Assembly (NCBI GenBank): GCA_016927065.1 | Contig: JAFGNJ010000020.1 | Coordinates: 10,923-74,922, forward strand | Direction: 5' to 3' | DNA length: 64,000 bases | Source: Deltaproteobacteria bacterium | GTDB taxonomy: Bacteria > Desulfobacterota > B13-G15 > RBG-16-54-18 | Shown: positions 1,975 through 41,245 of the stretch, in pieces | Layout: each line of letters opens with the position of its first letter | Numbering within the stretch: position 1 is the first letter of the stretch | The notes under the pieces: model-generated | What the model was told of the DNA's origin: nothing | The model's input: only the letters and a program-made list of their open reading frames with translations | Database searches by the model: none | Translations under genes and position numbers: made by a program

Positions 1975-2001
1975 AGAAACAAAAATAAGGAGGGAGAGAA
2001 C

Positions 2002-2163: not shown

Positions 2164-2186
2164 TATAACCGCAACAGAGGAGCGAC

Positions 2187-3287: not shown

Positions 3288-3378
3288 TTCGTCCCCCATG
3301 AGGATGCCCTAAAGCACTGCGAGGAATTGGGCCGCCGTGTGGCACAAAGGATACAACAATCGTAACAAGGAGAGGAAC

Positions 3379-3618: not shown

Positions 3619-3655
3619 GACGATCCTTGGCTAGAATTAAAGACCGAAGGACACA

Positions 3656-12035: not shown

Positions 12036-12602
12036 TTAAACTTTTTCTTTATAATCATCAAATAATGTTGTTACGATGGAGTCTGTTGTTTCTATAAAAT
12101 ATTTTATGCCAAGATTCTTGATTGTTTCATCATCTTCATATCCACATACTGTAGCAAAGGTTAACCCGACTAATTCATTTAAATTATCCTTCAGCTTTTC
12201 AGGTCTAGCATTTCTTAATATTGCAACATACATATCTCTTCGGTTGTTTTGATAATCAATGATTTCCTGAGCTTTGGTTTCGCCTAACTTATGTGTTGCT
12301 AATCCGTGTCTGTGCACCATAACTCTTTCGCTAATAATTTTGTAATCATCATTGATTCCAAAAAATATATAAAGTCCCCATTCAATAGCAAACAAAAGTA
12401 AGCCGCTTAATTCCCACGAAATTCTTTTCTTATCATAGTTCTCTGATAATGATTTATTACAGTCGAATTGTTCTAGTCTATTGGATATGTTTGTTATGAA
12501 AAGCTCTGCGTAATTATCAGGAGTTGGAGTGATCTTTTTCTTCTTCTTGAGTCTTGATAATAATCTCATGAAATATAGCCTTTTAAAAATCAAATATACC
12601 AA
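12036..12602 (-). CDS. Hypothetical membrane-associated protein in low-GC island 1
   Basis: A 188-aa ORF in a roughly 35% GC segment with one predicted TM helix (LSGLLLFAIEWGLYIFFGI). No recognisable family. Confidence 0.4.
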   Translation of the reverse strand: MVYLIFKRLYFMRLLSRLKKKKKITPTPDNYAELFITNISNRLEQFDCNKSLSENYDKKRISWELSGLLLFAIEWGLYIFFGINDDYKIISERVMVHRHGLATHKLGETKAQEIIDYQNNRRDMYVAILRNARPEKLKDNLNELVGLTFATVCGYEDDETIKNLGIKYFIETTDSIVTTLFDDYKEKV

Positions 12603-12860: not shown

Positions 12861-13751
12861 TTAATCGGAACTATCGACAGTGTTAGCAGCGAAACCCCAG
12901 CCAAATCGTATATACTGGCCAAGCGGTTCCCCGATACCCGAAGTATTTGTGTCTCGGATTCCAACGGTAAGTCGCCCGGGCAGAAACATTCCGATAACGA
13001 GGCACATAAAGTCTTGTATAAACTCAAGGCAGTTAGTATAAATTGTTTGCATATACTTCAGAACATCTATTCCCGCAATTCTGGGTACGGTTATTTGCCA
13101 CTGATCAGAGTTTCTCTCGGCCTGATAACTGTACCCGGCTATCGTTTTGAAGTGGTTCAAAGAAGTTCTAAGCGTAATAGCTTGTTTGAGCCATGCTTTT
13201 TGATCATCTCTTATCAACGAAATGATTGAGTCAACTATTTCTGTTTTGGGGTTTTTATCTCCTTTAAACTTCTCAAGACCTTTGATTAGATTCTCGCCCA
13301 TGTCACCAAATGTCTTAGTTTTGAATCTTTTTGGGAAAAGCGCCTCAAGAAATTTTACTGCAAGGTCAAGCGCACTCTTCATCTGGAACATAAAAGCTTC
13401 AAGCTCGAATAGTAGCTCATAAGCTTGCAACGAAATGTGACCATCTGGTCGACACTGTGCCTTCATCTGGCCGATACAAAGTTGCTCATGCTGTTCATAC
13501 CCCTTTAAATGATACTGCATAGCGGAAATCTTGATCATTACATTGAGCAATACAGCAATGAACTTGTCGTGCTCTTTGACTTTAGGATTAAAAAAGTCAA
13601 AGCCGTCGCTGAGCAGCAGCTCTTTGGCTTGATAGTAGAGGCGGCCCATGATCTCGAGATCGAATGGCATCTTTGATAATGCATCAAATTCGGTTTTTCC
13701 GATCTTATCCATTCTTGATCCTATATTGTGGCCCAACAATATTCTAACCAA
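12861..13751 (-). CDS. Hypothetical all-alpha protein in low-GC island 1, with a possible HEPN-like R-x4-H motif (RTSLNH)
   Basis: A 296-aa ORF, AT-rich, with no known domain recognised by eye. The R-x4-H motif is near a predicted C-terminal helix. Confidence 0.4.
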   Translation of the reverse strand: MVRILLGHNIGSRMDKIGKTEFDALSKMPFDLEIMGRLYYQAKELLLSDGFDFFNPKVKEHDKFIAVLLNVMIKISAMQYHLKGYEQHEQLCIGQMKAQCRPDGHISLQAYELLFELEAFMFQMKSALDLAVKFLEALFPKRFKTKTFGDMGENLIKGLEKFKGDKNPKTEIVDSIISLIRDDQKAWLKQAITLRTSLNHFKTIAGYSYQAERNSDQWQITVPRIAGIDVLKYMQTIYTNCLEFIQDFMCLVIGMFLPGRLTVGIRDTNTSGIGEPLGQYIRFGWGFAANTVDSSD

Positions 13752-13914: not shown

Positions 13915-16900
13915 TTACTGGGGCTTCCCCATGTGTACGAGGACCCGATGTTTGATAAAGTCCCGATCCAGTGGGATCACCCTATCCCGTACACGCCGAC
14001 CGTCCAGCTCCACCCACGCAACGCCCCGCTCATAGCCTTCCGGGTTCTCGACCCTGATCTCGTATATCGCTTCGCCGTGACGATAGCGCAGGCTGAAACC
14101 CTCCCACCAGCCGGGGATGACCGGATTTACCTGCATGCGATCCCCCCGCACCTGCAAGCCCAGGATCTCTTCAACCCAGGCTCGGTACATCCACGCAGAG
14201 GCACCCGTATACCACGACCAACCACCGTGACCGATCCTCCCGGGCAATCGGTATACATCAGCCGCGATCACGTAGGGCTCGATCCCGTAGCGCCAGACTG
14301 TTTCCGGATCACGCGCCCGCTCGATCGGGTTAAGCATGCGCATCATTTTCACCGCACGCTCACCATCCCCTCGACGCGCCATGGCCATGGCGAACCACAG
14401 GGCGGCGTGAGTGTACTGGCCTCCGTTCTCGCGCACCCCCGGCGGGTACCCCTTGATGTAGCCGGGTGACGGCTCCGATTTGTCGAAAGGAGGTTCGAGG
14501 AGCAGCACGAGACCTTCATCCTCGCGAACGAGATGTCTCCATGCCGATTCCAAGGCACTCTTTGCACGATCCGTGTCGGCGGCGCCGCTCAGCCACGCCC
14601 AGGATTGGGGCAGGGAATCGATCTTCGCCTCTTCATTCGCCGAAGAGCCAAGCGGCGTGCCATCGTCGAAGATCGCCCGCAGATACCATTCCCCATCCCA
14701 GGCTTTTTGTTCGACAAGCTTAATCAGCGCCTTCCGTTTTTGCTGATAGGTCTTACGCAGATCCGGCCGATCCAGGAGGTCAGCCATCTCGACCATGCCC
14801 TGCAGCACATCCGCCAGGAACCACGCCAGCCACACGCTCTCCCCTTTGCCCCCGGCACCCACAAGGTTCATCCCATCGTTCCAGTCTCCCGTTCCCATCA
14901 GGGGCAACCCGGTGGGCCCAACAGTCAGCCCGCGCGAGACCGCTCGCTCGCAGTGCTCAAACAGCGTACCGCGTTCCCGCGCGATCTCCGGTGTGGAGAG
15001 GGCTTCTCGCTGATCTGCTTCCAACAGAGGAGCGTTGAGGAAGGGAACCGTCGTATGCAGGATGCCCACATCACCGGTGATCCTGATGTAGTGAGCGACG
15101 ACGTAGGGAAGCCATAGGGGATCATCGGAGATCCGCGAGCGGATACCTGCGCCGTTCGGTGGATGCCACCAGTGCTGGACATCGCCTTCCTTGAACTGGC
15201 GGCTCGCCGCAAACAGGATGTGCTCTCGCGCCAGGTCGGGATACGCGTAGACGAAAGCCATGACGTCCTGCAATTGATCGCGGAAGCCGAACGCGCCGCC
15301 GGGCTGGTAAAAGGCGGAACGCCCCCAGATCCGGCAGCTCAGACTTTGGTACAGCAACCAGCGGTTGATGAGGAAGTCCGCTGCGAGCTCGGGGGTATGG
15401 ACTTCGATCGTGCCCAACAGGTCATCCCACCAGGCTTTCATTTTGCTTAGAGAGGTTTCGAACGCCGAGCTTTTCCGGTAGGTTTGAACCAGCTTATGGA
15501 CCTCCTCCGCTGATCCGGCCTGGCCCACCATGCACGTAATCTCAACCTTCTCACCGGGAGCCAGTTCGACCCTGACCTGCAGCGCGGCACAGGGGTCCAA
15601 TCCCGCTCCCGTCCGCAGTGAAAGCCTGATCCGCTCCATCGCCACGGGGTTCGCCATCGAGCGATTGCGCCCCAGGAAGGATGTGCGGTCGCCGTTGTAT
15701 GACTCCACAGGCGGGCTGATGGCCGCGAAGGCCACACGATCCCCATACTCGGGGTGGTAACGATTTCTGGCAAGCAGGGCCTGCGCTTCGTCATCCCAGG
15801 TGGTCACGACGTGCATCTGAGAAGACTCACGGTTCTCCCCCAGTGTCCACTCTACGTAATACGTAACAGACAGTTTGCGATGCCGAGCGGAGTCGTTTCT
15901 CAGCCGCAGCCGCTGCAGTTTGATCGGCTCTCCCCCTTGCTCGTCTACGGGAACGAAGACCAAGAGCTCCTGCTCGATCCCATTGCTATTATGCTCGAAT
16001 GCCGTGTACCCTGCCCCGTGCCGTGTCCGATAGGGGGTCTTTTCGCGGATCGGCGTCGGGGTCGGTGTCCAGTAGACACCGCTCTCCTCATCCCGAATGT
16101 ACAACGCCTCAGACGGTGGATCCATCACGGAGTCGTTCGACCATGGCGTCAGGCGATTGCGCTGGCTGTTGCCATACCAGGTAAAGCCGGCCCCTGTTTC
16201 GCTGAGTACTGTTCCGAAAGTCGGGTTGGCGATGACGTTTACCCAGGGCGCGGGCGTGTGGGTGTCTGGTCCGAAATAGATTGCGTATTCACGCCCGTCC
16301 GGGGTAAACCCACCCAGGCTATTGAAGTAGGGTAATTCCAGGAAGGGCAGCGCAGGCGAAGGCTCCCGGGGGGCACGCTTCTTGACCATGGGTTCCGGCA
16401 TCTCGGGAGCCTCCGCAGGCATACCCAATTGCTGGGGCAATGTGCCGCGGGCCGCCACCAACTCCACACTCGCCGCTGCCCTGAGCAGCGTCAGATCTTC
16501 CTCAGGCATAAGATCAGCGCTACGCACGTAGACACCACCAGACTGATCGATCCCCGCGTGCATCGCATGCGTCTGGATGAGGTGCTCGAGTCGTTCGCGC
16601 AGGGGCTGTTCATAACCGCTCGCTTCCTCATTGAGGATCACTAAGTCTGCCATTAATCCGTGATTATGCCAATAGGCATGCGCCTGGAGCATTTGACGAA
16701 CCAGGGTGATGTCCTGCGCTTCACCGATGGTGACCAGGGCGATCGGCACGTCGCCCGAGATTCCGTAGGGCCACAATCCGGCTTGGCCCTTGCAATTCTT
16801 TTCGATGCATTCAATGGGAGGCCGCAGGCTGGGATTGGGAAACAGCAAGTGGCTTGTCAGCTGCTGGAAGCGGCGGGCCTCGTCGGGCTGGATACGAAGC

Positions 16901-19900
16901 AGCCGCAACTCGAGTTGGGCGGAGGCCCAGGCGACATCCATCGCCCGATCGATCGGAGGGAGTTCTCCGTACTTGTCCATCAGTCTCAAGACCTGCTGGC
17001 GTGTTTCGCCGGCGGCGATAACTAGGGAAACCTGGATGCGCCGGCCCGGACCGAGAGTCACGCTCCGCCGCAGGCTGAGGATCGGGTCGAGAACAAAACC
17101 CTGGTTGCTACCGAGCTCTTGAAAGACACCCATGGGACTGGCGAGCGTCCTCCCGCGTCCGATGAACCGCCGCCGGTCGGTATCGAACTGCAAGGCGTTA
17201 TCCTCGACTTGTTCGAGCGTGAAGCGGTGCGCAATATAGATGGGCGGGTCGTCATCTCCGCGAGGCCTGCGGCACGCGAGAAGCGCCTGATATTCGGGCA
17301 CCGCTTCGGTCTGGATGAACAGCTTGTTAAAGGCCGGATGCTGCCGGTCAGCGTTGTGCGGCGCCATTGAGAGTTCGACGTAGCTTGTGAGCTCGAGGCG
17401 GCGGGTGCGAACGGACCGGTTGATCAGAGTGATCCGCCGGATCTCAACGTCATCTTCCGGCGAGACGATGACCTCGGTTTCGGTTTGAATGCCGCTATCG
17501 GTGCGTCGGAACACGGCACGATCGAGCGCAAAGTTGGCGGAATACGCCTCGACCTTCCCGCCGGTTGGATGATACGTATTGGACCACAAACGATCCGAAT
17601 CGGCTTCATGGATATAGCAGAAGGTTCCCCACGGATCCCGCGTCCGATCAGATCTCCAGCGGGTAATCTCATAGTCTCTCCACCGGCTGTACCCGCCGCC
17701 GGCGTTCGTGAGCATCAGGTTATAGCTACCATTACTCAGCAGTTGGGTTTTGGGTGTAGCGGTGTGTGGCGTATCGAATTTGCTCACTGACGGCACCACT
17801 TCGCCGACGTCCGTCACCGAAGGCGCCCTCTCACGGGTGGTGATGTGGTGGAGCGGAGGAAGGACAGGGATGCGTTCATGGAGCAATGGCTCGACCGCAC
17901 GCACGCGTGCGTCGGCATGAAAACGGCGTTGGATGATATTACCATGGATGAAGTTGGTCAGCGACAGAAAACTCATTCCTTGATGATTAGTCATATACGC
18001 TCGTACCATCACCCCGCGCTCGCCCGGGCGGCCCGGCTGCCGGCTGAAGTCCATCGCTTCGTAATAGCCGTAATCGTTCAAAAGCCCCAACTTAGCTAAG
18101 CGTTTCAGATTCTGCACGGTCTCTCTCGGTGCTATATTCACCGCCAGAAGAGTAGCATAGGGTGCTACGACAACCTCCTCCAAGCCGCGTTTTAATCCGA
18201 GCTCCGGCACACCGAACGCCTTGTATTGATACGTCTTGTTGATGTCCAGGTCTCCAAAGGCGGACTCCGAGATCCCCCACGGCACATGGAGCTTGCGACC
18301 GTAGGCGATGTGGATCGCCACAGCTTCCCGTGTTGCTTTATCCAGGAGTGAATTCCAGTACGTTTTTTGTAAAATGAGCGGCATGAGATATTCGAACATG
18401 CTTCCTGTCCAGCTGAGCAGCACCCGGTGCCGGCCGATCGCGCCGTAGGGCCGGCTCATTGAGAACCAATGCTCAGCGGAGACGTCACCGCGCGCAATGG
18501 CGACAAAACTCCCAAGCCGCGCCTCACTCGCCAGGAGATCGTAATAGGCGCTATCCAAGCGCCCGTCGGAAACATTGTAGCCGACGGAGAACAACCGGCG
18601 TTCGGAGTCATACAGGAAGGGCATGTTGATCGATTCGGACAGTTCGCGTCCATCCTGGACCAGGCGCTCGCCCAAAGCAAGCATTTCACCCGCCAACCAT
18701 TGCGCCTTTGCAAAGGCCTGCAGAAGGCGGCTAATCCACTCGAAGAGGGGGCCTGTTTCCGAGGGAGAAAAGTCCCGAATCGATTGCAGGGTCTGTATAC
18801 AGCCTATATGCCCTTTGGCGAGATCGCGAAGCGACGGCGCGTGATACAGATTCTCGCGCAACGCGAGCACGGCCTCCCTGCCCAGCAAGGCGATCTCATC
18901 TTCCGCTTTTTCATCAATGATTTCGATCCAGGCGAGGTAGCGATCCACAATCTCGCGCCAGGCCAATACCTGTTTCTCCATCTGCCCGGCCCAATAGGCC
19001 GCACGCGATTCACCTCCGGTTTCACCGTCTGTTTCACCTCGGGTTCCCCCTCCGGGTTCCCCAGAGGGTCCGCCGGAGGCGGACTTACGTTTCTTACGGT
19101 AAAGACCTTTTATGCTGTCTTCTAGTTGCCGCAGCAGGCGCAGCGCATCGGCGATGCGATCCGGTGGATTTTCACAACTACGCATCAGTTCGTCAAGGCG
19201 GCGGGCATTGAGAGCGGAAACGCCTTCCTCTTCGACGACCTGCTTCAAGATTTCACCGGTGTCCCGCAGACCTGCAAAGGCTTTCGCATCCAGCATGGGG
19301 TCTTGCATCAAGTCGTCAAGACCTTGCTCCAGGGCCCAGAGGGCGCCAAGCAGGTTTCCACTGTCCACCATGGATACGTAGCGAGGTTCGAGAGGGGTCA
19401 GGGTTTTAATATCGTACCAATTCAACAGATGACCCTCATAGCGCTCGAGTTTGCCGATCGTCTCCATAGTACGCGTCAACTTTTCGATGGCCTGATCCAT
19501 CGTCAGATATCCGAAATCATGGGCGGCGAGCGCGCTGACCATCCAGAAACCGATGTTGGTTGGACTGGTACGCATCGCTAGTTGATTCTTATGGGAGAAC
19601 TGGTAATTGTCCGGCGGAAGCCAAGAGGTGTTTTCTCCGACAAAATCAGAGAAATACCGCCAGGTTCGTCGTGCAACCTTTCTCAGGAACCGCACATCCT
19701 TTTCGGGAAACAGTAATCGCTGTGACCTCGCGTGCGGTCTGAGGGTCAAGAGCCAACCGATCAGAGGGGATAAGAACCACAATACGAGCCAGGGACCGGC
19801 CAGGAAAATGTTCGACGGCATCCAGCGCTGCACCGCCCAACCCATGATCACGCTGAAGATGCTCGCTAGGCCCAGCAACATCACGAACGTCTGCACTCGA

Positions 19901-22900
19901 TCCGGGGCATTTCCATGCATCACCTGGGTTGACGTCCACTCGAGCAACCCTCGATGAGAGATAAGACGACGATACCAGACCCGCAGAATGGCATCCATCG
20001 CCAGCCAGGCCTGGCGCGGAAGCAGTGCAGCTTCGACAATCGCCCGCAGCAGGTCGTGCGCCAATCGTAAGAAGGAAAAGCCCCGTGGCCCCTGGCCGGT
20101 GGTCGCCCATATGAAGGGCTGAACTAAGGGGTGAAAGAGCAGCTGCATGGCGACCACAACGGCAGATATCCACACCATCTCAGAGGAAGTCAGCCAGGAC
20201 GCTATCAGTAAGCCCAGACTGGTCGCAGGTACCAGGCTACGGCGCAAGTTGTCGAAGACCTTCCAGCGGTCGAACCAGGAGAGCGGGTTTGGTCCTCGGC
20301 CTCCTCCGGGCAGGGGAACGCGCGGCAAAATCCAATCCGCAATTTGCCAATCACCGCGAATCCAACGATGCTGCCGGCTGGTGTAGCTCATGTAATCCTG
20401 CGGGAACTCATCATAGAGCTCGATATCACTGGCGAGGCCCACGCGAACATGAGCACCTTCGATCAAATCATGACTGAGCAATTGCTCTTCGGGAAACGTG
20501 CCGGAAAGCACTCGACTGAAGACACGCACGTCATAGATGCCTTTGCCATGATAGGAGCCTTCGCCAGTGAGATCCTGATTGACGTCGGAAACAGCCTTGG
20601 TATAGGGGTCGATTCCGATTGGGTCCGAGAAGAGCCGGCTGAATGGCGTGGCGCTCGTACTCGGCAGGGAGGGGCTCACGCGCGGTTGGATGATCGCATA
20701 GGAGCCGGCCAGGATGCCACCTTTGTCATCGAAGCGCGGCAGGTTGAGCGGGTGGGCCAGGGTTTCAACCATCCTGCGGGCGGTGTCGTGCGGTAGCTGC
20801 GTGTCGCTGTCCAACGTGATGACAAATCTCACATCGGACAGGCGATCCGGGTCGCCGACGTACACCAACCGATTGGCATCTTCAGGCCGCGTTCCATCAA
20901 TCAGACGATTGAGTTCTTCCAGTTTCCCGCGTTTACGCTCCCACCCGATAAATTTCTGTTCGGATTCACTCCATTTTCGCTCTCGATGGAAAAGGGAAAA
21001 ACGTTCGCCGCCATACCGGTTATTGAGGGCTTCGATGCTTTCGATCGTCGCTTGGAGCAGGTGTTCGTCCTCCTCGCCATGCGCTTGCTTTGAATCCGCA
21101 TAATCCGAGAAGAGGCCAAAGAATACATTGTTTTCTTTGTTAGTGAGATATCTGAGCTCGAGCTTTTCCGCCTCGGCCCGGATAGTCTCCGCATCAACCA
21201 ACAGCATGGGCACAACGACGAGCGTTCGAAATTCATCAGGAATCCCCGAGTCCTCGAAATTCATCTTCGGAAGCGTGCGCGGCGGAAGTAACTGCGTGAC
21301 CAGGTAATTCACAACCTCGAGCGAAAGCTGGCTAATCGGAATCAGCAAAAGAAGCGCTAGCAAAAGCCGGATCACGGGTGTCTGCCCGCGCATACCAAGC
21401 AAAACGATCAGGGAGATGAATACCGCGGTAAAAAAGCCGAGCCCAAGAAAGTACACTGCAGCATGATGGCGGTAGACCCATTGCACAACGCGGAACCGGG
21501 GCGCCTCGCGACATCGTATGAGCTGCGCCAGCTCGTGTCTTCCTTCTCCAACCAGATATGTCCCGACATGGATACGCCGTTCATCCTTCACCCCTTTATG
21601 GGCCGCGCGCGTCGCTAGGTCAATGGCGCGCTGGGCGACTCGTTCTTCCGCCTGGCCTGACCTGCGGGCGAGTTCTTCAATCGTCCTACGATACCGATCT
21701 CGCGTGTCGAAATCCATCCGGGGATAGACTCCCGAAGGGTCCATCCGAAGCAACTGCTCCACTCGACTGATCTGTTCGAATATCTTCCTCCAATCCAACA
21801 GGGCGAGTTGTCGCAAACTGGTGAACGCATTCCCGATCGATATCTGATCCTTCATCTGGCGGTTTTGCTCACGAAGGTTGAGATCGCCCAGGGATTTTCG
21901 AAACATACGCTCGAGCCATGCCTTGACCGGCACCAGCGCGGCTTCTTGATCGTAGAGGTTATCGATCAGTTGAAGACTGAAATAGGGACTCGGCTTGGGT
22001 TGCGATTCGGCAAGTTCGGCAAGGATCGAAAGGATTGAGAAAGGCTGGTTGGGGTCTCGCCGATTGGCCGTAATGAGCCTGTTTGCCCAGAAGTCGGCAA
22101 TCTCACGTTCTCGCAGCTCTGTCAGGGCTCTTTCGGCGAGATACAAGAGGCCCTCGACCAATGCCGCGCGCAGCATCTGGGGGACGGCCCAGAGTTCGCC
22201 AATCGACAATGGGCCGACTGATTGATAGGCCTTGATGAACGCGAGGATGTTCTCCCTATCCAGACGCAAGTCCGCATGTGAGACCAGTTCCCGTGCGAGG
22301 CCGTAGATGCGCGGCAGACCACGGTAGGGCCCGCTGGCCAGTGCCGGCAGCTCCTGGTAATAGCGCCGGGGAAGGTTCAACTGCACTTCGCGCACGTTAC
22401 TCTCGATGATGTACTCATTGTCGAGGAGCCACTCGGTGGTTGGAGGCGTACTCTGACCCAGTCGACTCGCTTCGGACAGATCCAGGCAAACACGATGGAT
22501 CCATCGCCGGGTTTGTTCGAGCCACTTGAGCAGTTTGATGTTCCGCCGGGGATTCGTGCTCACCTGATGGTCCTTGGCGAGGCGCTCAGCATACTCCTGG
22601 ATCTGTACCCCAGAGAGCGGACTCTCGAGGCTCGCCGCCTCTCCGATGAAATCCTCTCGCTTCGGATGCAGAAAAAATATGGCGGGCGGGATCTCGTCGC
22701 TTTCCTGCAACACTGCCATGGGGGAGCGCAATGTTTCGATCGGTGCCCGGAGAATCAGGACGGTCTCCTCGGATACCAACCAGCGCGCATGATCCTCGAG
22801 CAGCCTTCGTTCGACGCCGAACCTCGATCGTCGTATCCATGCCACACTGAAGAAGATTCCGGCGATCCCACCCGCAAGGCCCGGAATCAGGGTAGACAGG

Positions 22901-23157
22901 CTTCCAAACGGAATCGGCACCGACCACTGAAGGCTCATAGCGGCAGCCCCAGCGATGAAGCCGCAGAGGAAGAAACCCGCGGCCACTCCAAAGGCCCGGA
23001 GCCGCAGGAAGGGATCTCGAGTTTGGATATGTCCATCCGCTGTCTTGCTCATCAAGGCAACGCGCCGGAAACCCCTCCGCTGCAACCCCTTGAGGGCCCT
23101 GCGAGCCGCATCCTGTTTTGCGAAGTAGCCTATGAGAATGCCTGCTCTCACGTCCAT
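13915..23157 (-). CDS. ndvB: Cyclic beta-1,2-glucan synthase-like giant protein (GT84 glycosyltransferase region plus GH94 glycoside phosphorylase region), 3080 aa
   Basis: A GT2-like core ([19 protein letters not shown]) is flanked by TM segments. The C-terminal half has GH94 signatures ([33 protein letters not shown]). Confidence 0.75.
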   Translation of the reverse strand: [3080 protein letters not shown]

Positions 23158-32626: not shown

Positions 32627-33649
32627 ATGGCTGATATCAGGGAGATCTTACGCAAGGCCTTAGAGAAAGAGGCGGCGTCCTCCCAGGAGTATCTTGAGGC
32701 CGCAAAAAATACCTCTGACCCCGAGGCCAAATCCCTCTTAGAACAGTTGGCTCAGGACGAGTTGAGGCATCGACAGGTCCTGAAGACCCAGCTCGAACTT
32801 CTGGAGGCAGCAAGAACATCACACCCCAAGCGGCCTGCGGGGAAAGAGGTCTCTCGCGACCTGGATGGAGAGTCCTGCGAAGCGGAGTTGGAGGGGGCCA
32901 AAAGGGCTACCAGTGTGCTGGCCGAGGCCAAGCGAGAGATCGAAGAGACCCAAAAGGCCAAAGAGGAACTCTATGCCATGGCAACCCATGACCTGCGCTC
33001 CCCGCTCATCTCCATTGTGGCCTTTGCCCAAAAACTCCTCACCTCCCTGCACGGCAAGGTCTCTGAGGCGGAGCATCAGAAAATTCAATGGATCTGGAGC
33101 GAGGCGAGAAAACTGGAGGGATTCGTGAGCAACTTCTTGGACCTGGCCCGCCTTTCCGCTGGCGCAGTGGAACTCAACCGTCAGCCCATAGAGCCGCGCC
33201 TCATAGTCGATGAAGAGATTGAGGCCTTGTCCCCCCAAATCAATGACAAGGGGCTGCATGTGGAGGTAACAATGAGTGGGGTGCCGTGGGTGGAGGCCGA
33301 TGCATGGGCCGCCAGAAGACTCTTTATGAACCTCATGAGCAACGCCGTACTCCACGGAAGGTCCGGCGGCACCATCGAGGTCGGTGGCGAAGGGGAAATT
33401 GGTATGGTCCGCTTCTGGGTGAAGGACGATGGTCCGGGAATTCCTGAGAAAGACTTACCCCATATTTTTGAAACGTTCCACACCGATGCCTCAAAAAGGG
33501 GAAGCGGTCTGGGACTGGCCATAGCCCTTCAGGTGGTACAAGCCCATGGAGGACGCATCTGGGTCGAGAGCCAAGAGGGTGCAGGAGCCACCTTTTACTT
33601 CACCCTCCCCAAGGCGCACGGAGAAAAAAAGGCGCGCAATGCCCCATAG
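32627..33649 (+). CDS. Cytoplasmic sensor histidine kinase (coiled-coil N-terminus, HisKA, HATPase_c), with no adjacent response regulator
   Basis: H-box ATHDLRSPL, N-box LMSNAVLHG, G1 DDGPGI and G2 GSGLGL. Confidence 0.75.
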   Translation: MADIREILRKALEKEAASSQEYLEAAKNTSDPEAKSLLEQLAQDELRHRQVLKTQLELLEAARTSHPKRPAGKEVSRDLDGESCEAELEGAKRATSVLAEAKREIEETQKAKEELYAMATHDLRSPLISIVAFAQKLLTSLHGKVSEAEHQKIQWIWSEARKLEGFVSNFLDLARLSAGAVELNRQPIEPRLIVDEEIEALSPQINDKGLHVEVTMSGVPWVEADAWAARRLFMNLMSNAVLHGRSGGTIEVGGEGEIGMVRFWVKDDGPGIPEKDLPHIFETFHTDASKRGSGLGLAIALQVVQAHGGRIWVESQEGAGATFYFTLPKAHGEKKARNAP

Positions 33650-36617
33650 AATAGAAGTGGCCATCAAGGATGATCTCAGGGACTCCTTGGGTGAAAAGAC
33701 GGCGGCCAGGATGGTGAACGATCTGGGGTTCTCGGTGCAGTCGGTGCGGACTATCGAATCCTACACCATCGACACCACTCTGGACAAGCAACAGCTTGAG
33801 CTGGTGGCCCGCGATGCCTACTGCGACCCCATCACCCAAGTCTGGTCCGTTGATCGCCCTTTGGCAAAGACATTCGACTGGGTCATCGAGGTGGGGTTTT
33901 TGCCCGGTGTGACGGATAATGTGGGGAGGACCGCCCGGGAGGCCCTGGAGGCCAGTCTCTCAATTCATTTAAAGGAAGACGAAAAGGTCTATACCTCTCA
34001 TCAGTACCTGATACAGGGGGATCTCTCCCGAACAGAAGTGGAACAAATCGCCACCCAGCTCCTCGGCAACCCGTTGATCAACCGTTTCGAGATCAAGAGC
34101 AAAGAGGAATGGGATCCCCAGAAGGGATTCGGCCCCCTGGTCCCCAAGGTGACGGGGCTGAAGGGGGGAGAGGTAGAACGGTTCGATTTAGAGATCACTG
34201 ACGAAAAGCTCATCGCCCTCAGCAGGGAACGGTTGCTGGCCCTTTCCCTGGAGGAGATGCAAGCTGTCCAAGCCTACCTCAAGGATACAGCGATCAAGCA
34301 GAAGAGGAAAGAGATCGGCATTGGGGAAGGGATCACCGACGTAGAGCTGGAGGCCATCGCCCAGACTTGGTCCGAGCACTGCAAGCACAAGATCTTCCAG
34401 GCCCGCATTACCTACATCGACGCAGATGGTAAGGAGGAGGTGATCGAGGGGCTTTTCAACACCTATATCAAAGGCTCTACCGAGACAATCAGGCGCGCGT
34501 TAGGGAAGAAAGACCCATGCCTTTCGGTCTTTACGGACAACGCCGGAGTGGTGGCCTTTAACGACCAGTGGAGCCTTGCCTTCAAGGTGGAGACCCACAA
34601 CACCCCCTCCGCCCTTGACCCCTACGGCGGGGCATTAACGGGCATCGTGGGGGTCAATCGCGACCCCTTCGGCACGGGCAAAGGGGCCAAGTTGATCTTC
34701 AACACGGACGTCTTCTGCTTCGCCCCGCCCGACTGGCCCGGCCCCCTGCCGGAGCGGGTACTGCACCCCAAGCGGATCTTCGAGGGGGTCAGGGAAGGGG
34801 TGGAGCACGGGGGGAACAAGAGCGGGATCCCCACGGTGAACGGCAGCATCGTTTTTGATGAACGCTACGTGGGTAAGCCCCTGGTCTACTGCGGCACCTG
34901 CGGGATCATGCCGAGGACCATCAAGGGCGAGCCCTCGCATATAAAAGAGGCCCATCCCGGTGATGTGGTTGTGATGGTGGGGGGGCGCATCGGCAAGGAC
35001 GGGATTCACGGGGCCACCTTCTCCTCGGAAGAGCTCCACGAGGAATCCCCTACCAGCGCCGTGCAGATCGGGGACCCCATTACCCAAAAAAGGATGACCG
35101 ATTTTCTCCTGAGGGCCCGTGATCGAGGCCTCTACACCGCTATCACGGACAACGGCGCAGGCGGGCTCTCATCATCAGTAGGTGAGATGGCAAAAGAGCC
35201 TGGCGGATGTGAGATCCACCTCGAGCGCGCGCCGCTCAAGTATCCCGGCCTCGACCCCTGGGAAATCCTCGTGTCCGAATCGCAGGAGCGGATGACCCTG
35301 GCAGTGGCCCCTGACAAGATAGACGCCCTGTTTGAGCTTGCCTCGAAGATGGATGTGGAGGCCACTGAAGTGGGACGCTTTACTGACAGCGGTGTATTTC
35401 ACTGCCTCTGGCACGGCGAGACCGTTGCGTACCTGGCAATGGAGTTTTTCCACGAGGGGGCCCCGCGCATGGACCTCGTGGCCCGATGGCAGCCTCCCCG
35501 CCCTGAGGAGCCTGTTGTTGATCCACCGCACGATCTAACCGCAACCCTGGAAGGAATGCTCTCCCGTCTCAACATCTGCAGCAAGGAGTCAGTAGTGCGT
35601 CAGTACGATCACGAGGTCCAGGGGGGGAGCACGATCAAGCCGTTAGTTGGTGAGAACGCGGACGGCCCTGGGGATGCCGCCGTCATCCGATCACTGTTGG
35701 ACTCCTATAAAGGGATCGTGGTCTCGCATGGGATCTGCCCTCGATACAGCGACATCGATACCTACCCAATGATGGCGTGCGCCATCGACGAGGCCGTCAG
35801 GAACGCCGTGGCCGTGGGGGGTGACCCGGCAAGAATGGTGGGACTGGACAACTTCTGCTGGCCCGATCCTGTGCAGTCGGAAAAGACCCCTGACGGCGAG
35901 TACAAGCTGGCGCAGCTGGTACGCGCAAACAAGGCCCTGTACGACTACACCATTGCGTATCAATGCCCCTGCATCTCAGGCAAGGACAGCATGAAGAACG
36001 ACTTCATGGCCGGTGAGGTGAAGATCTCCGTGCCGCCCACGGTCCTCTTTTCGGTCCTGGGAACAATTGATGACGTGCGCAAGGCCGTGACCATGGATTG
36101 CAAGGCACCCGGGGATTTGGTCTACGTCGTGGGGCAGACCTATGAGGAGATGGGAGGATCGGAATACTTCGCCATGCACGGATCAATCGGCAATCAGGTC
36201 CCGCAGGTCAGGGCCGAACAGGCCAAGGAAATCTATCACAAACTCCACACGGCCATCATGGATGGGCTCATTGCCTCGTGCCACGACTGCTCCGATGGGG
36301 GAATGGGAGTAGCCCTGGCTGAGAGCGCCTTTGCCGGCGGGTTCGGCATGGAGGTGGACTTGAGAAATGTCCCTGCCGAGGGGATAGTACGGGACGACTA
36401 CCTCCTCTTCTCCGAGTCCCAGAGCAGGTTCGTCGTAACAGTCAACCCCGCTAAAAAGGATGCCTTCCTCGCCATCATGAAAGGTATCACCTTAGGAGAA
36501 ATTGGAAGGGTGCCCAAGGGCAAGGCATTCATCGTGACTGGGCTTAAAGGCAAAAAGGTCATCCAGGGAGATATCTATAAGCTGAAAGTAGCCTGGCAAA
36601 AGCCGTTGGGGGTATAG
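33639..36617 (+). CDS. purL: Phosphoribosylformylglycinamidine synthase II with a fused N-terminal PurS-like domain (PurS-PurL)
   Basis: PurL signatures (HNTPSALDPYGGALTGIVGVNRD, AITDNGAGGLSSSVGEMA) follow an extra N-terminal domain of about 100 aa. The start was chosen at ATG 33639 and overlaps the histidine-kinase stop by 11 nt. Confidence 0.8.
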   Translation: MPHRIEVAIKDDLRDSLGEKTAARMVNDLGFSVQSVRTIESYTIDTTLDKQQLELVARDAYCDPITQVWSVDRPLAKTFDWVIEVGFLPGVTDNVGRTAREALEASLSIHLKEDEKVYTSHQYLIQGDLSRTEVEQIATQLLGNPLINRFEIKSKEEWDPQKGFGPLVPKVTGLKGGEVERFDLEITDEKLIALSRERLLALSLEEMQAVQAYLKDTAIKQKRKEIGIGEGITDVELEAIAQTWSEHCKHKIFQARITYIDADGKEEVIEGLFNTYIKGSTETIRRALGKKDPCLSVFTDNAGVVAFNDQWSLAFKVETHNTPSALDPYGGALTGIVGVNRDPFGTGKGAKLIFNTDVFCFAPPDWPGPLPERVLHPKRIFEGVREGVEHGGNKSGIPTVNGSIVFDERYVGKPLVYCGTCGIMPRTIKGEPSHIKEAHPGDVVVMVGGRIGKDGIHGATFSSEELHEESPTSAVQIGDPITQKRMTDFLLRARDRGLYTAITDNGAGGLSSSVGEMAKEPGGCEIHLERAPLKYPGLDPWEILVSESQERMTLAVAPDKIDALFELASKMDVEATEVGRFTDSGVFHCLWHGETVAYLAMEFFHEGAPRMDLVARWQPPRPEEPVVDPPHDLTATLEGMLSRLNICSKESVVRQYDHEVQGGSTIKPLVGENADGPGDAAVIRSLLDSYKGIVVSHGICPRYSDIDTYPMMACAIDEAVRNAVAVGGDPARMVGLDNFCWPDPVQSEKTPDGEYKLAQLVRANKALYDYTIAYQCPCISGKDSMKNDFMAGEVKISVPPTVLFSVLGTIDDVRKAVTMDCKAPGDLVYVVGQTYEEMGGSEYFAMHGSIGNQVPQVRAEQAKEIYHKLHTAIMDGLIASCHDCSDGGMGVALAESAFAGGFGMEVDLRNVPAEGIVRDDYLLFSESQSRFVVTVNPAKKDAFLAIMKGITLGEIGRVPKGKAFIVTGLKGKKVIQGDIYKLKVAWQKPLGV

Positions 36618-36792
36618 CGCAATCTGGGTAACAACGTCCCCAAAGTCCCTCCGTAGGCTGCGCACAATTGGGACAAGTAAGAAAAACTGCCAACTATGAC
36701 CGAAAATGTTTGATTTAAGATGATAAAATAGCATAAAGTGATAAAAAGAGAACTTAAATGGCAAAAATAAGGAAAAATGAGAGTTGATAAAA

Positions 36793-36806
36793 GTATCAAT
36801 TGATAC
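36793..36806. promoter_or_regulatory. Perfect 14-bp palindrome GTATCAATTGATAC, 10 nt upstream of the toxin start; candidate operator for toxin-antitoxin autoregulation
   Basis: The palindrome was read directly from the sequence in the AT-rich promoter region of the toxin-antitoxin pair. Confidence 0.4.
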
Positions 36807-36815
36807 CAAACTGTA

Positions 36816-37181
36816 ATGACTAGACCTTCTCATAAGGAAATACACGGAAAGATAAGGAAAGCAAGAGAGTTAGTATCAGATGGTTATTTTGCTGTAATAG
36901 AACCAGACAGTATTGCTGCTGATGCATTAGAGTTAGGCTATTTAATAGAGGACCTTCCAAATATTCCTTCTGAGATTTTAATTGAAGTAAAAGCCGAAAA
37001 TTATGTCGGCGATCAACCTCCACAGCGTTCCTATGAGAAACAAATTATAGATTGTGAGCTCTTTGCATTTAGATGGGCAAGCAAACGATTTGGTTGTGAA
37101 ATCTATGTAAAGTTTACACTCAAGGATAACACAATGTGGCTTGTGTCCTTGCATGAACATAGGGAGAAGGAGGATGAATAA
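36816..37181 (+). CDS. mqsR: MqsR-like toxin (predicted ribosome-independent mRNA interferase, RelE/MqsR fold)
   Basis: A 121-aa protein whose pattern matches E. coli MqsR as recalled from memory (KARELVSDGYFAV..ADALELGY ... YVKFTLKDNTMWLVSLHEHREK versus MqsR ...ALLNADELGLDF ... YLKITVIHDVLIVSFKEK). It is in a low-GC island, and its stop overlaps the antitoxin start. Confidence 0.55.
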   Translation: MTRPSHKEIHGKIRKARELVSDGYFAVIEPDSIAADALELGYLIEDLPNIPSEILIEVKAENYVGDQPPQRSYEKQIIDCELFAFRWASKRFGCEIYVKFTLKDNTMWLVSLHEHREKEDE

Positions 37182-37998
37182 AATTATAAATGAAATGATA
37201 AACTGCCCGAACGGGCATGGTGAAATGCAAATTACTAGAGTAGAGAAAAAACTGAAGTTCCGTGGTGTGGATATAACTTTTCAGACAGAACATTACTTGT
37301 GCTCAGTTTGTGGTATAGAAGTAGGCTCCATCGAACAAGCATCAGTTACTCAGCGAGTAATTTCCGACGCGTATCGCAAAGCGGTTGGTCTACTGACGAG
37401 CGAGGAGATTCGTGGAGGCAGAAAGAAATTAGGCCTAACGCAAGCCGATCTTGCGCAGCATATGTGTGTTGGTATCGCCAGTCTAAAGAGGTGGGAGGGG
37501 GGAATAATTCAGACTAAGTCAATGGATAGGGCACTTCGAAACGTTCTTCAAGGCCAAGTATTTAGCGATGTTTACACAGGAAATCGATCATTTTCAATTC
37601 CAAGAGTAAAACTTGTTTTAAGAGAATTTGAGTTATCATTACAGAGAAAAATTCTGCAAGATGATAAAGGACTCTTCTCAGCTAAGTATTTATGGTACGC
37701 GGATATGGTAGCTTTCCGGGAGTTAGGTGAGAGTATGACTGGATCAACTTATGCTCGCCTTCCTCTCGGTCCCCAACTTAATAATTATCGAGACCTGATT
37801 GATGCCATAAAAGAAGCTGATGAAAGCGATGCGGAACCTCTTACGTCAGAGGAAAAAAAGATAATCTCCAAAATTTCAATGGTTTTCCCTAAGGATAAGA
37901 TGGTTTTTGATGTTTCCCATAGAGAAGTAATCGTGCAAAAAAAAGCAATTGGAAACATAATTCCATATTTGGATGCGGCAGAATTGACTGGGTTATGA
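37174..37998 (+). CDS. mqsA: MqsA-like antitoxin (N-terminal YgiT-type zinc ribbon plus HTH_XRE) extended by a C-terminal Panacea/DUF4065-like domain
   Basis: It has a CPNGHGEM...CSVCG zinc ribbon, an HTH (LGLTQADLAQHMCVGIASLKRWEGG) and a C-terminal region (KYLWYADMVAFRELGESMTGSTYARLPLGPQ) typical of Panacea domains. ATG 37174 is preceded by GGAGAAGGAGG. Confidence 0.55.
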   Translation: MNKIINEMINCPNGHGEMQITRVEKKLKFRGVDITFQTEHYLCSVCGIEVGSIEQASVTQRVISDAYRKAVGLLTSEEIRGGRKKLGLTQADLAQHMCVGIASLKRWEGGIIQTKSMDRALRNVLQGQVFSDVYTGNRSFSIPRVKLVLREFELSLQRKILQDDKGLFSAKYLWYADMVAFRELGESMTGSTYARLPLGPQLNNYRDLIDAIKEADESDAEPLTSEEKKIISKISMVFPKDKMVFDVSHREVIVQKKAIGNIIPYLDAAELTGL

Positions 37999-38013
37999 TT
38001 AACATTGATAATT

Positions 38014-38040
38014 AACCCATGCCCTAGAAATGGGTTTTTT
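38014..38040 (+). terminator. Rho-independent terminator (AACCCA-11nt-TGGGTT followed by a T-run) downstream of the antitoxin gene
   Basis: A 6-bp stem followed by TTTTTT, read from the sequence. Confidence 0.5.
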
Positions 38041-38096
38041 GAAAATAAAAAGGGGGCGGTTCTATTTTTTAGCTAATCCTTCTTCTTGGGTCTCCC

Positions 38097-39563
38097 CTAT
38101 CTCCTCGTTCGACCCCTCTCTCTTCTTCGACCAACGTCTTTTTTGTTCTTAGGGCGGCGGCGCTTTCGGCTCGCTCCCGGCTTTTTTTGTCCTTTTCCTT
38201 TGTCCGACGGTGCTTCAGAGGGTTGAGGTAAGGGGGCATGGAGCATCTGCTGATAATAATCGTCCAGTAACATGGCAATGATGGCGGACTCGTCTTCATT
38301 TTCAGCCAGGGTGCGGCCAAGCGAAACAAATCGCTTGCTGCGTTCGGTTTTTTGCGCGTCCCGATCGCGCAGGCGGGCTTCGAGCAGGGCCGTTACCCGT
38401 TCTGCAACAACGGCCGCTACGTCGGCATCCGTCGGCAAAGGCCACTCGTGCAGGTCGATACTATATTTTTTAGCGATACGGTCGAGAACGAATGTTTCCA
38501 GGTGGGTTGCCAGCGTCATGGCGACTCCCGCCTTGCCGACTCGGCCCGTTCGCCCGGCCCGGTGGATATAGTCCTCTAAATCATCGGACGGTTCGTATTG
38601 AATCACATGAGAGAGGTCAGGGACGTCGAGCCCCCGAGCGGCCACATCGGTGGCCACCAGAAAACGAAGCGTCTTCTTGCGAACACGCTCCAAAACCCGA
38701 TCGCGATCCTTCTGTGAAAGATCAGCTGTCAATTCATCCGCGTCATAACCGAAATTTTGCAGGACGGTCGACACATAATGTACTTCAGCCTTGGTATTGC
38801 AGAAAATAATGGCTGAAACCGGGTTCTCAATCTCGATGATGCGGATAAGGCTGCGATCTTTGTCCATGCCGGGCACGGTATAGAAGACGTGCGCGGTGTC
38901 GGTGACGTGAACGTGGTCTTCGCTGAGGGAGATGAATTCCGGTTCGCGAATGAATTCACTCGCGGTGCGCATGACATGGGGCGGGAAGGTTGCCGAGAAC
39001 ATACAGCCGTTGATACGGCGAGGCGGAAGGTATTTCTGCACCTTTTTCATGTCGGGGTAAAAACCCATGGACAGCATGCGGTCGGCTTCGTCAAAGATGA
39101 GCATCTCAAGATGTTCGAGAGAAAGTGTCCGCTTGAGAAGATGATCGAGTATACGACCCGGCGTACCGACGACAATGTGCGCGCCGTGGCGAAATGCGTC
39201 TATTTGCTCGCCATAACCAACACCGCCGTACACAGCGACAACACGAAAGCCTGCCTGGCCGCACAGCAGTTCGGCTGCTTGCGACACTTGCCGGGCCAGT
39301 TCACGCGTGGGGACGAGGATGAGCGCTTGACAGTGACGTTTCGCTGAATCGAGCCGCTCCAGCATGGGTAACAGAAACGCGCCGGATTTACCGCTGCCGG
39401 TACGGGCCTGGATCATCATGTTTCTTCCTGCAAGCAAGTAAGGAATGCCCCGCGCCTGAACGGGCATGAGGGTCGTCCAACCCGCGCGGGCGGCGGCATC
39501 TCGCAAGCGCGCGGGAAGTTGTTCCAGCGTTACATCAGGCAGTGGGTTGGTTTTGTTATCCAT
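38097..39563 (-). CDS. DEAD-box ATP-dependent RNA helicase with an Arg/Lys-rich C-terminal tail
   Basis: Q-motif, Walker A ARTGSGKSGAF, DEAD (IFDEADRM), SAT and HRAGRTGR motifs. The start was chosen at the internal ATG (MDNKTNPLP). Confidence 0.85.
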   Translation of the reverse strand: MDNKTNPLPDVTLEQLPARLRDAAARAGWTTLMPVQARGIPYLLAGRNMMIQARTGSGKSGAFLLPMLERLDSAKRHCQALILVPTRELARQVSQAAELLCGQAGFRVVAVYGGVGYGEQIDAFRHGAHIVVGTPGRILDHLLKRTLSLEHLEMLIFDEADRMLSMGFYPDMKKVQKYLPPRRINGCMFSATFPPHVMRTASEFIREPEFISLSEDHVHVTDTAHVFYTVPGMDKDRSLIRIIEIENPVSAIIFCNTKAEVHYVSTVLQNFGYDADELTADLSQKDRDRVLERVRKKTLRFLVATDVAARGLDVPDLSHVIQYEPSDDLEDYIHRAGRTGRVGKAGVAMTLATHLETFVLDRIAKKYSIDLHEWPLPTDADVAAVVAERVTALLEARLRDRDAQKTERSKRFVSLGRTLAENEDESAIIAMLLDDYYQQMLHAPLPQPSEAPSDKGKGQKKPGASRKRRRPKNKKDVGRRRERGRTRR

Positions 39564-40003
39564 GCGGGCCTCGCAACTATTGATTTGGTCATGACTAAAA
39601 CAGAAGATTCTCTTTGTATATTTATAGCACAATATCATAAATATTTTCATTGCGGTAGTTAAAGTCTTTGAAAGGAACTGGAAATTTTGGGGACACCATA
39701 CTTGATTATCGCGATAGCGGATATCCCCGTCTAATATTTTGATATGGAGGGACGTATTAAAGAACGTTAGTATACAAACAATTTCTTTTGATCTCTGCCA
39801 ACTATCTCTACCTTTCTCAGGCGACCATTTTTAGCTCAAAAAAGCCTGCAGCGGACGTTGGAAGTATGCCGCAATTTAGGTACACGTCCCTTAAGTTCTC
39901 AGGTCTCTGCGTCTCCTCAGGATTCATTTTTCAGCGATTGTGTGCTATAGTGTAGTTAACGTGTGACGTTTAAGTAACACTTCATAGTCTTATAGGAGGC
40001 GTC

Positions 40004-40504
40004 ATGAAGAACATGATATATAAAATATGTGTTGCGGCGGTACTTGCGATCATATTCTGCGCGTGCGGTATAATGAGCACAGCAGGGGCTGCAGAAAAAA
40101 ATGTAACTGCCAAAGATCTTATTGGAATATGGATCCAAAAGATCACGTGGACTGGCATAACCGAATCCCATCATTATCAACTAATCGCGACAGGTGAAAA
40201 TTCAATTAAACTCCAGTACGTAAAAAGCACACTATCCGATCCGAGTTCATCCTCTGAAGCGCTCTTGCGGGAGATCGATGCCACTGTAAGCGCAGACGGA
40301 GAAATCACAGGAACGGCGACCTATTATCTGGATAGGATATACCAACTTGGGCCGCCCAAAACATCCGAAATATTCGGCAGTGTATCTGCCGATAAACGTA
40401 GGATCACATTGCAGGGAAAAACACCTGGATTCAGCGGCAGACCCGGTCAGTTTAAGTGGAACGGGTCATTTAAAGATACCGTGACAATACTGGAGCGTTA
40501 TTAA
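40004..40504 (+). CDS. Hypothetical lipoprotein/secreted protein in low-GC island 3
   Basis: A signal peptide with a lipobox-like FCAC. No family recognised. Confidence 0.4.
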   Translation: MKNMIYKICVAAVLAIIFCACGIMSTAGAAEKNVTAKDLIGIWIQKITWTGITESHHYQLIATGENSIKLQYVKSTLSDPSSSSEALLREIDATVSADGEITGTATYYLDRIYQLGPPKTSEIFGSVSADKRRITLQGKTPGFSGRPGQFKWNGSFKDTVTILERY

Positions 40505-40631
40505 ACTTTCATGCAAGGGATGGTTCCACAGTTAGCCAGATGTTACCCTCTTTGATAAAGAGGGTAACAATTGAGGGGGATAATACAGCAAGGCAAATTT
40601 ACCCGACAATCAGTGGTTAAGCAGAAAATTT

Positions 40632-41174
40632 ATGAATTGGTTACAATTTATTTTGGGATTTGGGGCTGGCTTTGTTGTGGCGGTCCTACTTGCACTCTGG
40701 ATCTGGATGAAACATGGGTACAAACATATTTATATTCAACATAGTGCGCCTGAAGAAATAAAATCTATAGTCGAATTTCAACCATATGTAAAATGGCTTA
40801 TCGCTACCGAAGCAGACGAAGGAGAATTATATTTTCGAACAAAAAAACCAGTGTTCCTACTTAGGATGCAGAAGTTAAAATTTAAAAACAAACCAGATGT
40901 TATAGAAATTGACATTCGAAGCAGCGATGAAAACAACCAGCATTACTTAGCTGTTAGAGAGGGATTGAGTCAAAATGAAATAGATTTTAAAGAGCGCTTC
41001 ACTCCAAAACAGAAGAGGCCTAAAGATATGCGTGTGAGAATTGAGGTTGGTGCATTTGCACCAGCTGCTGTAGCAAATATACTAAAAATAATTACAACTT
41101 CAATTGGATGCAATGCAAATGAAGGAATATATGTTAGTGAACGGCATCCAAGTTTTTGGAGCAACACCGCTTAA
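40632..41174 (+). CDS. Hypothetical N-terminally membrane-anchored protein in low-GC island 3
   Basis: One N-terminal TM helix, AT-rich, no family recognised. Confidence 0.4.
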   Translation: MNWLQFILGFGAGFVVAVLLALWIWMKHGYKHIYIQHSAPEEIKSIVEFQPYVKWLIATEADEGELYFRTKKPVFLLRMQKLKFKNKPDVIEIDIRSSDENNQHYLAVREGLSQNEIDFKERFTPKQKRPKDMRVRIEVGAFAPAAVANILKIITTSIGCNANEGIYVSERHPSFWSNTA

Positions 41175-41245
41175 CAATTTAATAAACGGATTGGCTGAAA
41201 CACCTGCCAAGCCGGTTATCAAAACGTTGGACATGAGTCAATAAG

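Follow-up and report, generated by a model that had tools for sequence, protein, structure and literature searches.

In the 64,000-nt stretch of a Deltaproteobacteria bacterium genome referred to here as the window (assembly GCA_016927065.1, contig JAFGNJ010000020.1, positions 10,923 to 74,922 of the forward strand), a 1.4-kb stretch between a purL-type gene and a DEAD-box helicase gene holds two open reading frames (ORFs) on the same strand, which we describe as a candidate toxin-antitoxin (TA) cassette. The first ORF, at 36816..37181 (+), codes for a 121-aa protein assigned as a divergent MqsR-like toxin with a RelE/ParE-type fold on the basis of the ORF itself, its homologs, a structural model and profile comparison. 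The second, at 37174..37998 (+) and beginning with ATG, codes for a 274-aa antitoxin made of an MqsA-type zinc-binding domain (ZBD), an XRE-type helix-turn-helix (HTH) and a Panacea domain. Records of the exact proteins, from a Deltaproteobacteria metagenome-assembled genome (MAG), name them "hypothetical protein JXA50_08620" and "DUF4065 domain-containing protein", respectively. The GC content of the cassette is 38%, compared to 58% in the flanks, in agreement with the low-GC island proposed by an earlier, sequence-only reading of this DNA.

The two ORFs share 8 nt, ATGAATAA, at 37174-37181, and their coordinates bear out the overlap and the two protein lengths given in the sequence-only reading. 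An alternative TTG start of the antitoxin lies at 37141; alignment with 40 homologs favors the ATG at 37174, which follows a strong Shine-Dalgarno (SD) region (GGAG/GGAGG) located near the end of the toxin coding sequence, in its 3′ part, at 37163..37171 (+), the sequence GGAGAAGGAGG spanning 37162-37172. No SD precedes the toxin start at ATG 36816. The 8-nt overlap suggests that the antitoxin is translationally coupled to the toxin.

The identity of the toxin was not revealed by standard profile searches. No match to MqsR or RelE was obtained at E ≤ 1 in Pfam, NCBIfam or PDB-sequence searches, so that the toxin lacked significance against the PF15723 family hidden Markov model (HMM), and nothing was returned by PADLOC, by PHROGs or by searches of the PDB with the sequence or a profile, the PDB profile search missing 3HI2. 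A single weak NCBIfam match to phage SPP1 gp7 (E = 0.16) was discarded as noise. Sub-threshold matches to PF15723 were given by 16 of the 86 members of the toxin family (best E = 0.004), and each of the other Pfam families among the top 25 of 37 listed was matched by one member only. The AlphaFold (AF2) model of the toxin, built from 36 homologs, had a predicted local distance difference test (pLDDT) score of 90.9 and a predicted template modeling (pTM) score of 0.83. Its top PDB entries in Foldseek were the MqsR chains 3HI2_B and 3HI2_D (E = 2e-4 and 5e-4; probability 1.0), with target-normalized TM values of 0.69-0.73; these were the only PDB matches below E = 1e-3, and RelE, HigB, YoeB and ParE toxins ranked after MqsR at E > 0.1. 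Consistent with the model, when an alignment of the 86 members was compared by hhalign with one of 37 canonical MqsR sequences, 90 colinear columns were matched at 77% probability (E = 2e-5); the comparison was informative only against the family alignment, as E. coli MqsR alone, whose query sequence matched 3HI2_B (E = 1.8e-62), gave only 6.6% probability.

The MqsR/RelE-like fold was thus recovered by the model, Foldseek and hhalign, and the toxin is encoded directly upstream of an MqsA-type antitoxin. The sequence-only reading had proposed the resemblance to MqsR and had named the lack of an HMM hit to MqsR or RelE as what would overturn it. That hit is indeed missing, whereas the fold, the profile-profile match and the gene context speak for the proposal. 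Because the structure, the 77% profile-profile match, the sub-threshold PF15723 matches and the gene context all point to MqsR, the assignment survives the HMM failure, and the 121-aa protein is MqsR-like in fold and context and too divergent for standard annotation. The family consists of ~120-aa proteins, 43 clusters of which were found by a word-indexed search, none of the 43 with a precomputed Pfam domain, and 405 representatives at 50% identity by an exhaustive profile search. An apparent excess of antitoxins (830 versus 43 toxin homologs) was therefore rejected, the word-indexed search having produced it artificially.

The active site of the toxin may be altered compared to canonical MqsR, for which K56, Q68, Y81 and K96 are said to have been proposed as catalytic residues by Brown and colleagues in 2009. 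In the hhalign alignment, the nearly invariant toxin Y97 paired with MqsR Y81, K99 with K83, and S111 with S94; MqsR K96 fell opposite the invariant H113, K56 opposite G65 and Q68 opposite A84, the alignment of the insert region being uncertain. This insert of ~20 residues carries an invariant Y63-x-G-x-x-P-P-x-x-S-Y73 motif, and R3, E8, Y63, Y97, K99, S111 and H113 are conserved polar residues of the family. Since K56, Q68 and K96 are not kept, the activity or specificity of the toxin may differ from that of canonical MqsR, which cuts at GCU. The lack of counterparts to three of the four proposed catalytic residues and the lack of an HMM match would also fit a 121-aa protein that is no toxin at all but a degenerate or repurposed MqsR fold, for example a co-regulator, in which case the pair would form a transcription-factor operon; in E. 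coli, eight of the PanT candidates showed no toxicity (Kurata et al. 2022, PMC8832971). We find this hard to credit given the strong purifying selection on the family, the conservation of its polar residues including the catalytic Tyr, and the loci described below in which the antitoxin and operator outlasted a deleted toxin, a pattern that fits the usual decay of TA systems, where the toxin goes first. RelE-type RNases, moreover, often use a C-terminal His as general acid.

The antitoxin was recognized by existing profiles over both of its parts. The MqsA family profile TIGR03830 of NCBIfam, which covers the zinc ribbon and the HTH, scored 74.4 bits over aa 11-124 (cutoff 61.8), PF15731 (MqsA) gave 28.3 bits, just below its cutoff of 30, and PF13274 (SocA_Panacea) exceeded its gathering score of 25.7 with 31.9 bits, with aa 171-226 aligned to profile positions 3-82 of 113. 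An AF2 model from 41 homologs (pLDDT 83) resolved three modules, namely beta-hairpins at aa 10-50, helices at aa 53-125 and, after a disordered linker at aa 126-140, a C-terminal domain at aa 142-274. The best PDB matches of this model in Foldseek were E. coli MqsA chains 3GN5_B and 3GN5_A (E = 2e-4, 124 columns, 25% identity), its HTH part matched many XRE repressors, and the ZBD plus XRE-HTH fold was therefore recovered. No solved Panacea structure was among the PDB matches. The MqsA identity of the 274-aa protein and its C-terminal Panacea domain, both put forward by the sequence-only reading, were thus confirmed, as was the presence of its quoted motif KYLWYADMVAFRELGESMTGSTYARLPLGPQ in the Panacea-matching part.

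The ZBD (~aa 10-50; 37201..37323, +) was delimited by the 41-homolog alignment, the AF2 beta-hairpins and alignment to E. coli MqsA. Its zinc-ligand candidates C11, H15, C43 and C46 (CxxxH...CxxC) are invariant in the 41 homologs, G14 stands at the position of E. coli MqsA C6, and from this pattern we infer a Cys3His site that binds zinc. The XRE-type HTH (~aa 76-125; 37399..37548, +), supported by Pfam/NCBIfam, the alignment, the AF2 model and Foldseek, includes a presumed recognition helix, G-I-A-S-(I/L)-K-R-W-E-G-G, that is invariant among the antitoxins of the same alignment. The Panacea (DUF4065) domain (~aa 142-274; 37597..37995, +), defined by the PF13274 match, was modeled with seven helices (142-156, 167-184, 205-214, 225-237, 241-250, 252-255 and 265-270) and two strands (193-196 and 199-202), a count that fits the compact fold of 7 helices and 2 strands described by Ernits et al. 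(2023, PNAS, PMC10440598). Its invariant residues include W174, Y175, D177, G199, P200 and Q201.

The sequence-only reading had called the three-module antitoxin unusual, and this proved incorrect because the architecture is shared by more than 830 protein clusters, a precomputed PF13274 match being present in nearly all homologs, and because published examples have been dissected experimentally (PMC8832971, PMC10440598). When species-representative genomes were scanned using the aligned antitoxins, 203 relatives were obtained, of which the best 80 form the set of loci analyzed below. According to a citation in PMC8832971, it was in 2013 that a DUF4065 protein was noted as an alternative MqsR partner. 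In that paper (2022, PNAS), Kurata et al. reported an MqsR-like protein as the commonest recognized partner of Panacea antitoxins (PanAs; n = 90), 343 PanAs with HTH N-terminal domains, a T2 group with the toxin-then-antitoxin order, and neutralization by PanA independent of proteases. In the part of Dataset S1 of that study that was searched, neither the toxin family of the window nor any of five genera looked for was found. The window pair resembles these PanAT systems in having a Panacea/DUF4065 antitoxin adjoining a small toxin, and differs from them in that many PanAs are Panacea-only and neutralize via Panacea itself. SocA of the Caulobacter SocAB system (type VI TA) also has a Panacea domain; unlike the window pair, it has neither ZBD, HTH nor an RNase toxin, and acts as a ClpXP adaptor degrading the replication inhibitor SocB.

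The closest likeness was to the MqsR(D2):PanA pairs of Bacillus fungorum (WP_099686063.1/WP_099686064.1) and Lactobacillus rossiae (WP_017263062.1/WP_017263061.1), which were validated by Ernits et al. (2023) and whose antitoxins are given there as "Panacea; ZBD (MqsA); HTH". Both share with the window the toxin-first order, the MqsR fold and a ZBD and HTH followed by a C-terminal Panacea. [quoted passage not shown] Compared to B. fungorum, the window antitoxin is shorter (274 versus 349 aa), as is its Panacea domain (~135 versus 175 aa); compared to both pairs, PF15723 misses the window toxin, the first zinc knuckle has the form CxxxH, and the lineage consists of Thermodesulfobacteriota MAGs, not Firmicutes. 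E. coli MqsR/MqsA (3HI2, 3GN5, 3O9X) likewise combines the toxin-first order, a RelE-like MqsR fold, an N-terminal ZBD and a C-terminal XRE HTH. Its proteins are 98 aa (MqsR) and 131 aa (MqsA, without Panacea), and relative to it the window toxin does not conserve K56, Q68 and K96 and carries the ~20-aa insert.

The B. fungorum antitoxin also bears on which domain would neutralize the toxin. The ZBD or ZBD-HTH neutralized B. fungorum MqsR, and Panacea or HTH-Panacea did not, a sensor role being proposed for Panacea (PMC10440598). An alternative in which Panacea performs the neutralization, as in single-domain PanA, and the MqsA-like half serves DNA binding only would draw on the ability of Panacea-only antitoxins to bind and neutralize many unrelated toxins (PMC8832971) and on the high conservation of the domain here, where the six residues named above and others are invariant. 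This is improbable in our view, because the result just cited comes from the sole dissected system of matching architecture, and because the ZBD here has an invariant ligand set and strictly co-occurs with the MqsR-like toxin. We therefore favor the ZBD as the probable neutralizing part.

Upstream of the toxin, a perfect 14-bp palindrome, GTATCAATTGATAC, lies at 36793..36806 and ends 9 nt before the toxin ATG, so that the sequence-only reading was right about the palindrome and one nucleotide off in its distance of 10 nt. It occupies a 17-nt spacer between a -35-like hexamer TTGATA (36784..36789, +) and a weak -10-like hexamer CAAACT (36807..36812, +), both assigned a promoter role by inference; the counterparts are TTGACA in most homologous loci and YATAAT-like, respectively. 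With up to 2 mismatches, GTATCAATTGATAC was present in 73 of the 80 loci, at the operon promoter save for one hit in 383 kb, and each of its 14 positions was 97-100% conserved in the 67 single-site loci. In most of these the palindrome is preceded, at a distance of 2-6 nt, by a TTGACA-like hexamer, the consensus right after it reads Y-A-T-A-n-T, and the palindrome fills a 17-18-nt spacer. A full-text literature search for the palindrome sequence gave no match, and this operator and promoter layout does not come up in the passages of Ernits et al. (PMC10440598) that were consulted.

Taken by itself, the palindrome would leave room for an origin other than a protein operator, such as mere chance, a hairpin in the RNA or a mobile-element terminus, as the window has 6 perfect 14-bp palindromes compared to ~4.3 expected from shuffles, near the chance rate; for the 198-nt intergenic region alone the chance of one is ~0.009. 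It is the conservation across related loci that puts the palindrome beyond chance. Dozens of loci carry it unchanged, down to the central AATT, which in a hairpin would be the loop, although the proteins of these loci are only 50-65% identical to those of the window; it always lies between -35 and -10, is often duplicated at 30-nt spacing, and in the 40%-identical system L084 a variant, GTATCATATGATC, has retained the spacing together with the GTATCA half-site. We regard a non-operator origin as very remote. The reading of GTATCAATTGATAC as the operator of the antitoxin, suggested already as an autoregulatory site, is strongly supported by the conservation of the palindrome in the promoter spacer together with the invariant recognition helix.

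Similarly, the HTH of E. coli MqsA binds palindromes in its own promoter, a binding that the E. coli toxin weakens, and some of the related loci have two sites, usually separated by 30 nt or roughly three turns of the helix. Unlike GTATCAATTGATAC, the operator in E. coli has the form ACCT-N-AGGT. The start-to-start distance was 30 nt in L038, L042, L043, L045, L048, L058 and L072 and 31 nt in L068. Most two-palindrome loci have an SD before the toxin, which represents a second promoter layout beside the single-site, leaderless-looking one. In 38 of 49 loci the toxin start falls within 13 nt past the palindrome without an SD-like motif, and where the gap is longer or the site is doubled, an SD before the toxin is mostly present. 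Since the start codon lies only a few nucleotides past the promoter without an SD, the toxin mRNA is probably leaderless or nearly so.

The 80 loci belong nearly all to Thermodesulfobacteriota or "Deltaproteobacteria" MAGs, with Desulfosarcina widdelii and Smithella in addition. A toxin-family ORF was present in 70 of them, directly upstream of the antitoxin in nearly all, with 2 toxin-antitoxin fusions and 1 weak remnant among the 70. Look-ups starting from the toxin retrieved the same antitoxin partner even for a 40%-identical toxin, and the pairing is thus nearly one to one. Several of the loci without toxin end at a contig edge, and several retain the promoter ~80 nt from the antitoxin, indicating that in the latter the toxin was deleted. 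In L005, L016, L018, L069 and L080 the antitoxin and the promoter-operator are retained and the toxin is absent or a remnant, with the palindrome 43-118 nt before the listed start of the antitoxin ORF (~80 nt in L005, L016 and L018), which looks like TA decay through toxin loss.

Individual loci showed further variation. Fused toxin and antitoxin frames, or an antitoxin with an N-terminal toxin remnant, were seen in L044 (2117-3304), L008 (1346-2278) and protein P0128, and these probably result from a frameshift or assembly error at the overlapping stop/start. Two cassette copies in one MAG (L017 and L023, CAWGWZ01) have an identical operator, which makes cross-regulation between the paralogs possible. 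In L047 a canonical MqsR (HMM 54 bits) with an MqsA-like partner (328-1135) lies ~1 kb upstream of a long-MqsR/PanA cassette (1990-3310) on the same contig, the toxin ORF of the latter being in two fragments. The most distant toxin relative examined (L084, 2010-3368; 40% identity) is paired with a 288-aa antitoxin with a canonical CxxC...CxxC zinc ribbon, and this cassette adjoins resolvase and zinc-ribbon recombinase genes (downstream, 3491-4236).

None of the related loci has purL or a helicase adjoining the cassette, the genomic context differs in every locus, and the cassette GC is often below that of its surroundings. The cassette is evidently a mobile module. Low-GC insertion in an ever-changing context is typical of mobile defense genes, and an abortive-infection module directed at phages, in which Panacea would sense a phage cue and release or activate the RNase, would also accord with the sensory Panacea favored for multi-domain PanAs by Ernits et al. 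(PMC10440598). We consider such a role, which would be compatible with a TA cassette, possible but unlikely, as neither protein was matched by a PADLOC model, no neighboring defense genes were identified, and the IMG/VR viral contigs contained no close antitoxin relative and no cassette. A phage origin was likewise rejected: the two IMG/VR matches to the promoter-operator pattern sit in unrelated coding sequence and encode neither protein, and are thus ascribed to chance.

Taken together, the pair is likely a chromosomally inserted type II TA cassette of the MqsR:PanA class, a functional reading that rests on homology and on analogy with tested relatives. The toxin would be a divergent MqsR-fold endoribonuclease causing growth arrest by RNA cutting. 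The ZBD-HTH-Panacea antitoxin, its translation presumably coupled to that of the toxin through the 8-nt overlap and initiated at a strong SD, would bind and neutralize the toxin with its N-terminal ZBD, by analogy with B. fungorum, and as a dimer would occupy GTATCAATTGATAC with its HTH; as the palindrome fills the -35/-10 spacer, the operon would be repressed because antitoxin sitting there would keep RNA polymerase out. Leaderless or near-leaderless translation would hold the synthesis of the toxin under that of the antitoxin. Panacea is probably not the neutralizing part and may act as a sensor of an activating cue or as a dimerization aid.

Several observations weigh against this interpretation. 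In addition to the empty profile searches of the toxin, Tyr alone of the four proposed MqsR catalytic residues is retained in the hhalign alignment; the zinc site of the antitoxin is CxxxH...CxxC and departs from the CxxC...CxxC ribbon of the family; and its Panacea domain falls short of the tested B. fungorum one by the difference given above. Neutralization by the ZBD is carried over from the B. fungorum protein as an analogy, and an MqsR:PanA pair of Herbaspirillum frisingense was not neutralized in E. coli (PMC8832971). The -10 of the window itself is weak and a promoter scan made no call there, and in a few loci the start codon abuts or lies inside the presumed -10, which makes the proposed promoter/leaderless geometry tentative.

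Downstream of the antitoxin, a candidate intrinsic terminator at 38014..38041 (+) consists of a 7-bp stem AACCCAT/ATGGGTT (38014-38020/38030-38036), a 9-nt loop and a U-run. The terminator had been described as clean, and its parts are all present; its fold energy (-9 kcal/mol, z = -2.3) is modest, and a consensus terminator scan of the window did not call the hairpin because the 9-nt loop is over the limit of the scan. The hairpin and U-run are a plausible but modest terminator. The 5′ neighbor of the cassette is the purL-type FGAM synthase gene (33546-36617, +), with AIRS, AIRS_C and FGAR-AT linker domains; a PurS-like match in the N-terminal part of its 1023-aa product (E = 6.5e-7) suggests a PurS-PurL fusion. 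The 3′ neighbor is the DEAD-box helicase gene (38097-39650, -), convergent with the cassette.

Two other low-GC stretches were observed in the window. The first island (37-42% GC) holds ORFs 12036-12602 (188 aa) and 12861-13751 (296 aa) on the - strand, neither with a Pfam match at E ≤ 0.001, and adjoins a GC-rich stretch with a single 3080-aa ORF (13915-23157, -). The third low-GC stretch, at 39650-41200 (36-46% GC) just past the helicase gene, holds ORFs 40004-40504 (166 aa) and 40632-41174 (180 aa) on the + strand, which have hydrophobic N-termini and no Pfam match.

Cassettes that join an MqsR-type toxin to an MqsA-Panacea antitoxin are known from other bacteria, where they have been tested, and the current picture of TA biology is unaltered. 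New in the window are the divergent lineage, the short Panacea, the zinc knuckle of CxxxH form and an operator that could be defined, the conservation of the operator and promoter, as read from aligned loci, being the strongest new result of the analysis. To our estimate it is doubtful, and we offer it tentatively, that the 121-aa proteins (405 representatives at 50% identity) are a distinct unannotated clade of MqsR-fold toxins with a re-wired active site (invariant His for Lys96), the family-specific Y-x-G-x-x-P-P-x-x-S-Y insert, a leaderless mRNA and a nearly invariant, portable promoter-operator; were the altered site to shift the target or cleavage specificity and Panacea to be the sensor of the trigger, the family would represent a functionally new branch of MqsR:PanA systems. 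About 400 protein clusters, called "hypothetical protein" in the few records that name them, become annotatable as MqsR-like toxins paired with ZBD-HTH-Panacea antitoxins, mainly in Thermodesulfobacteriota. The putative operator GTATCAATTGATAC and its promoter layout would be the first well defined for the MqsR:PanA class and can be used to find further cassettes. The frequent lack of a leader or SD suggests a simple way to keep the toxin under the antitoxin in toxin-first operons.

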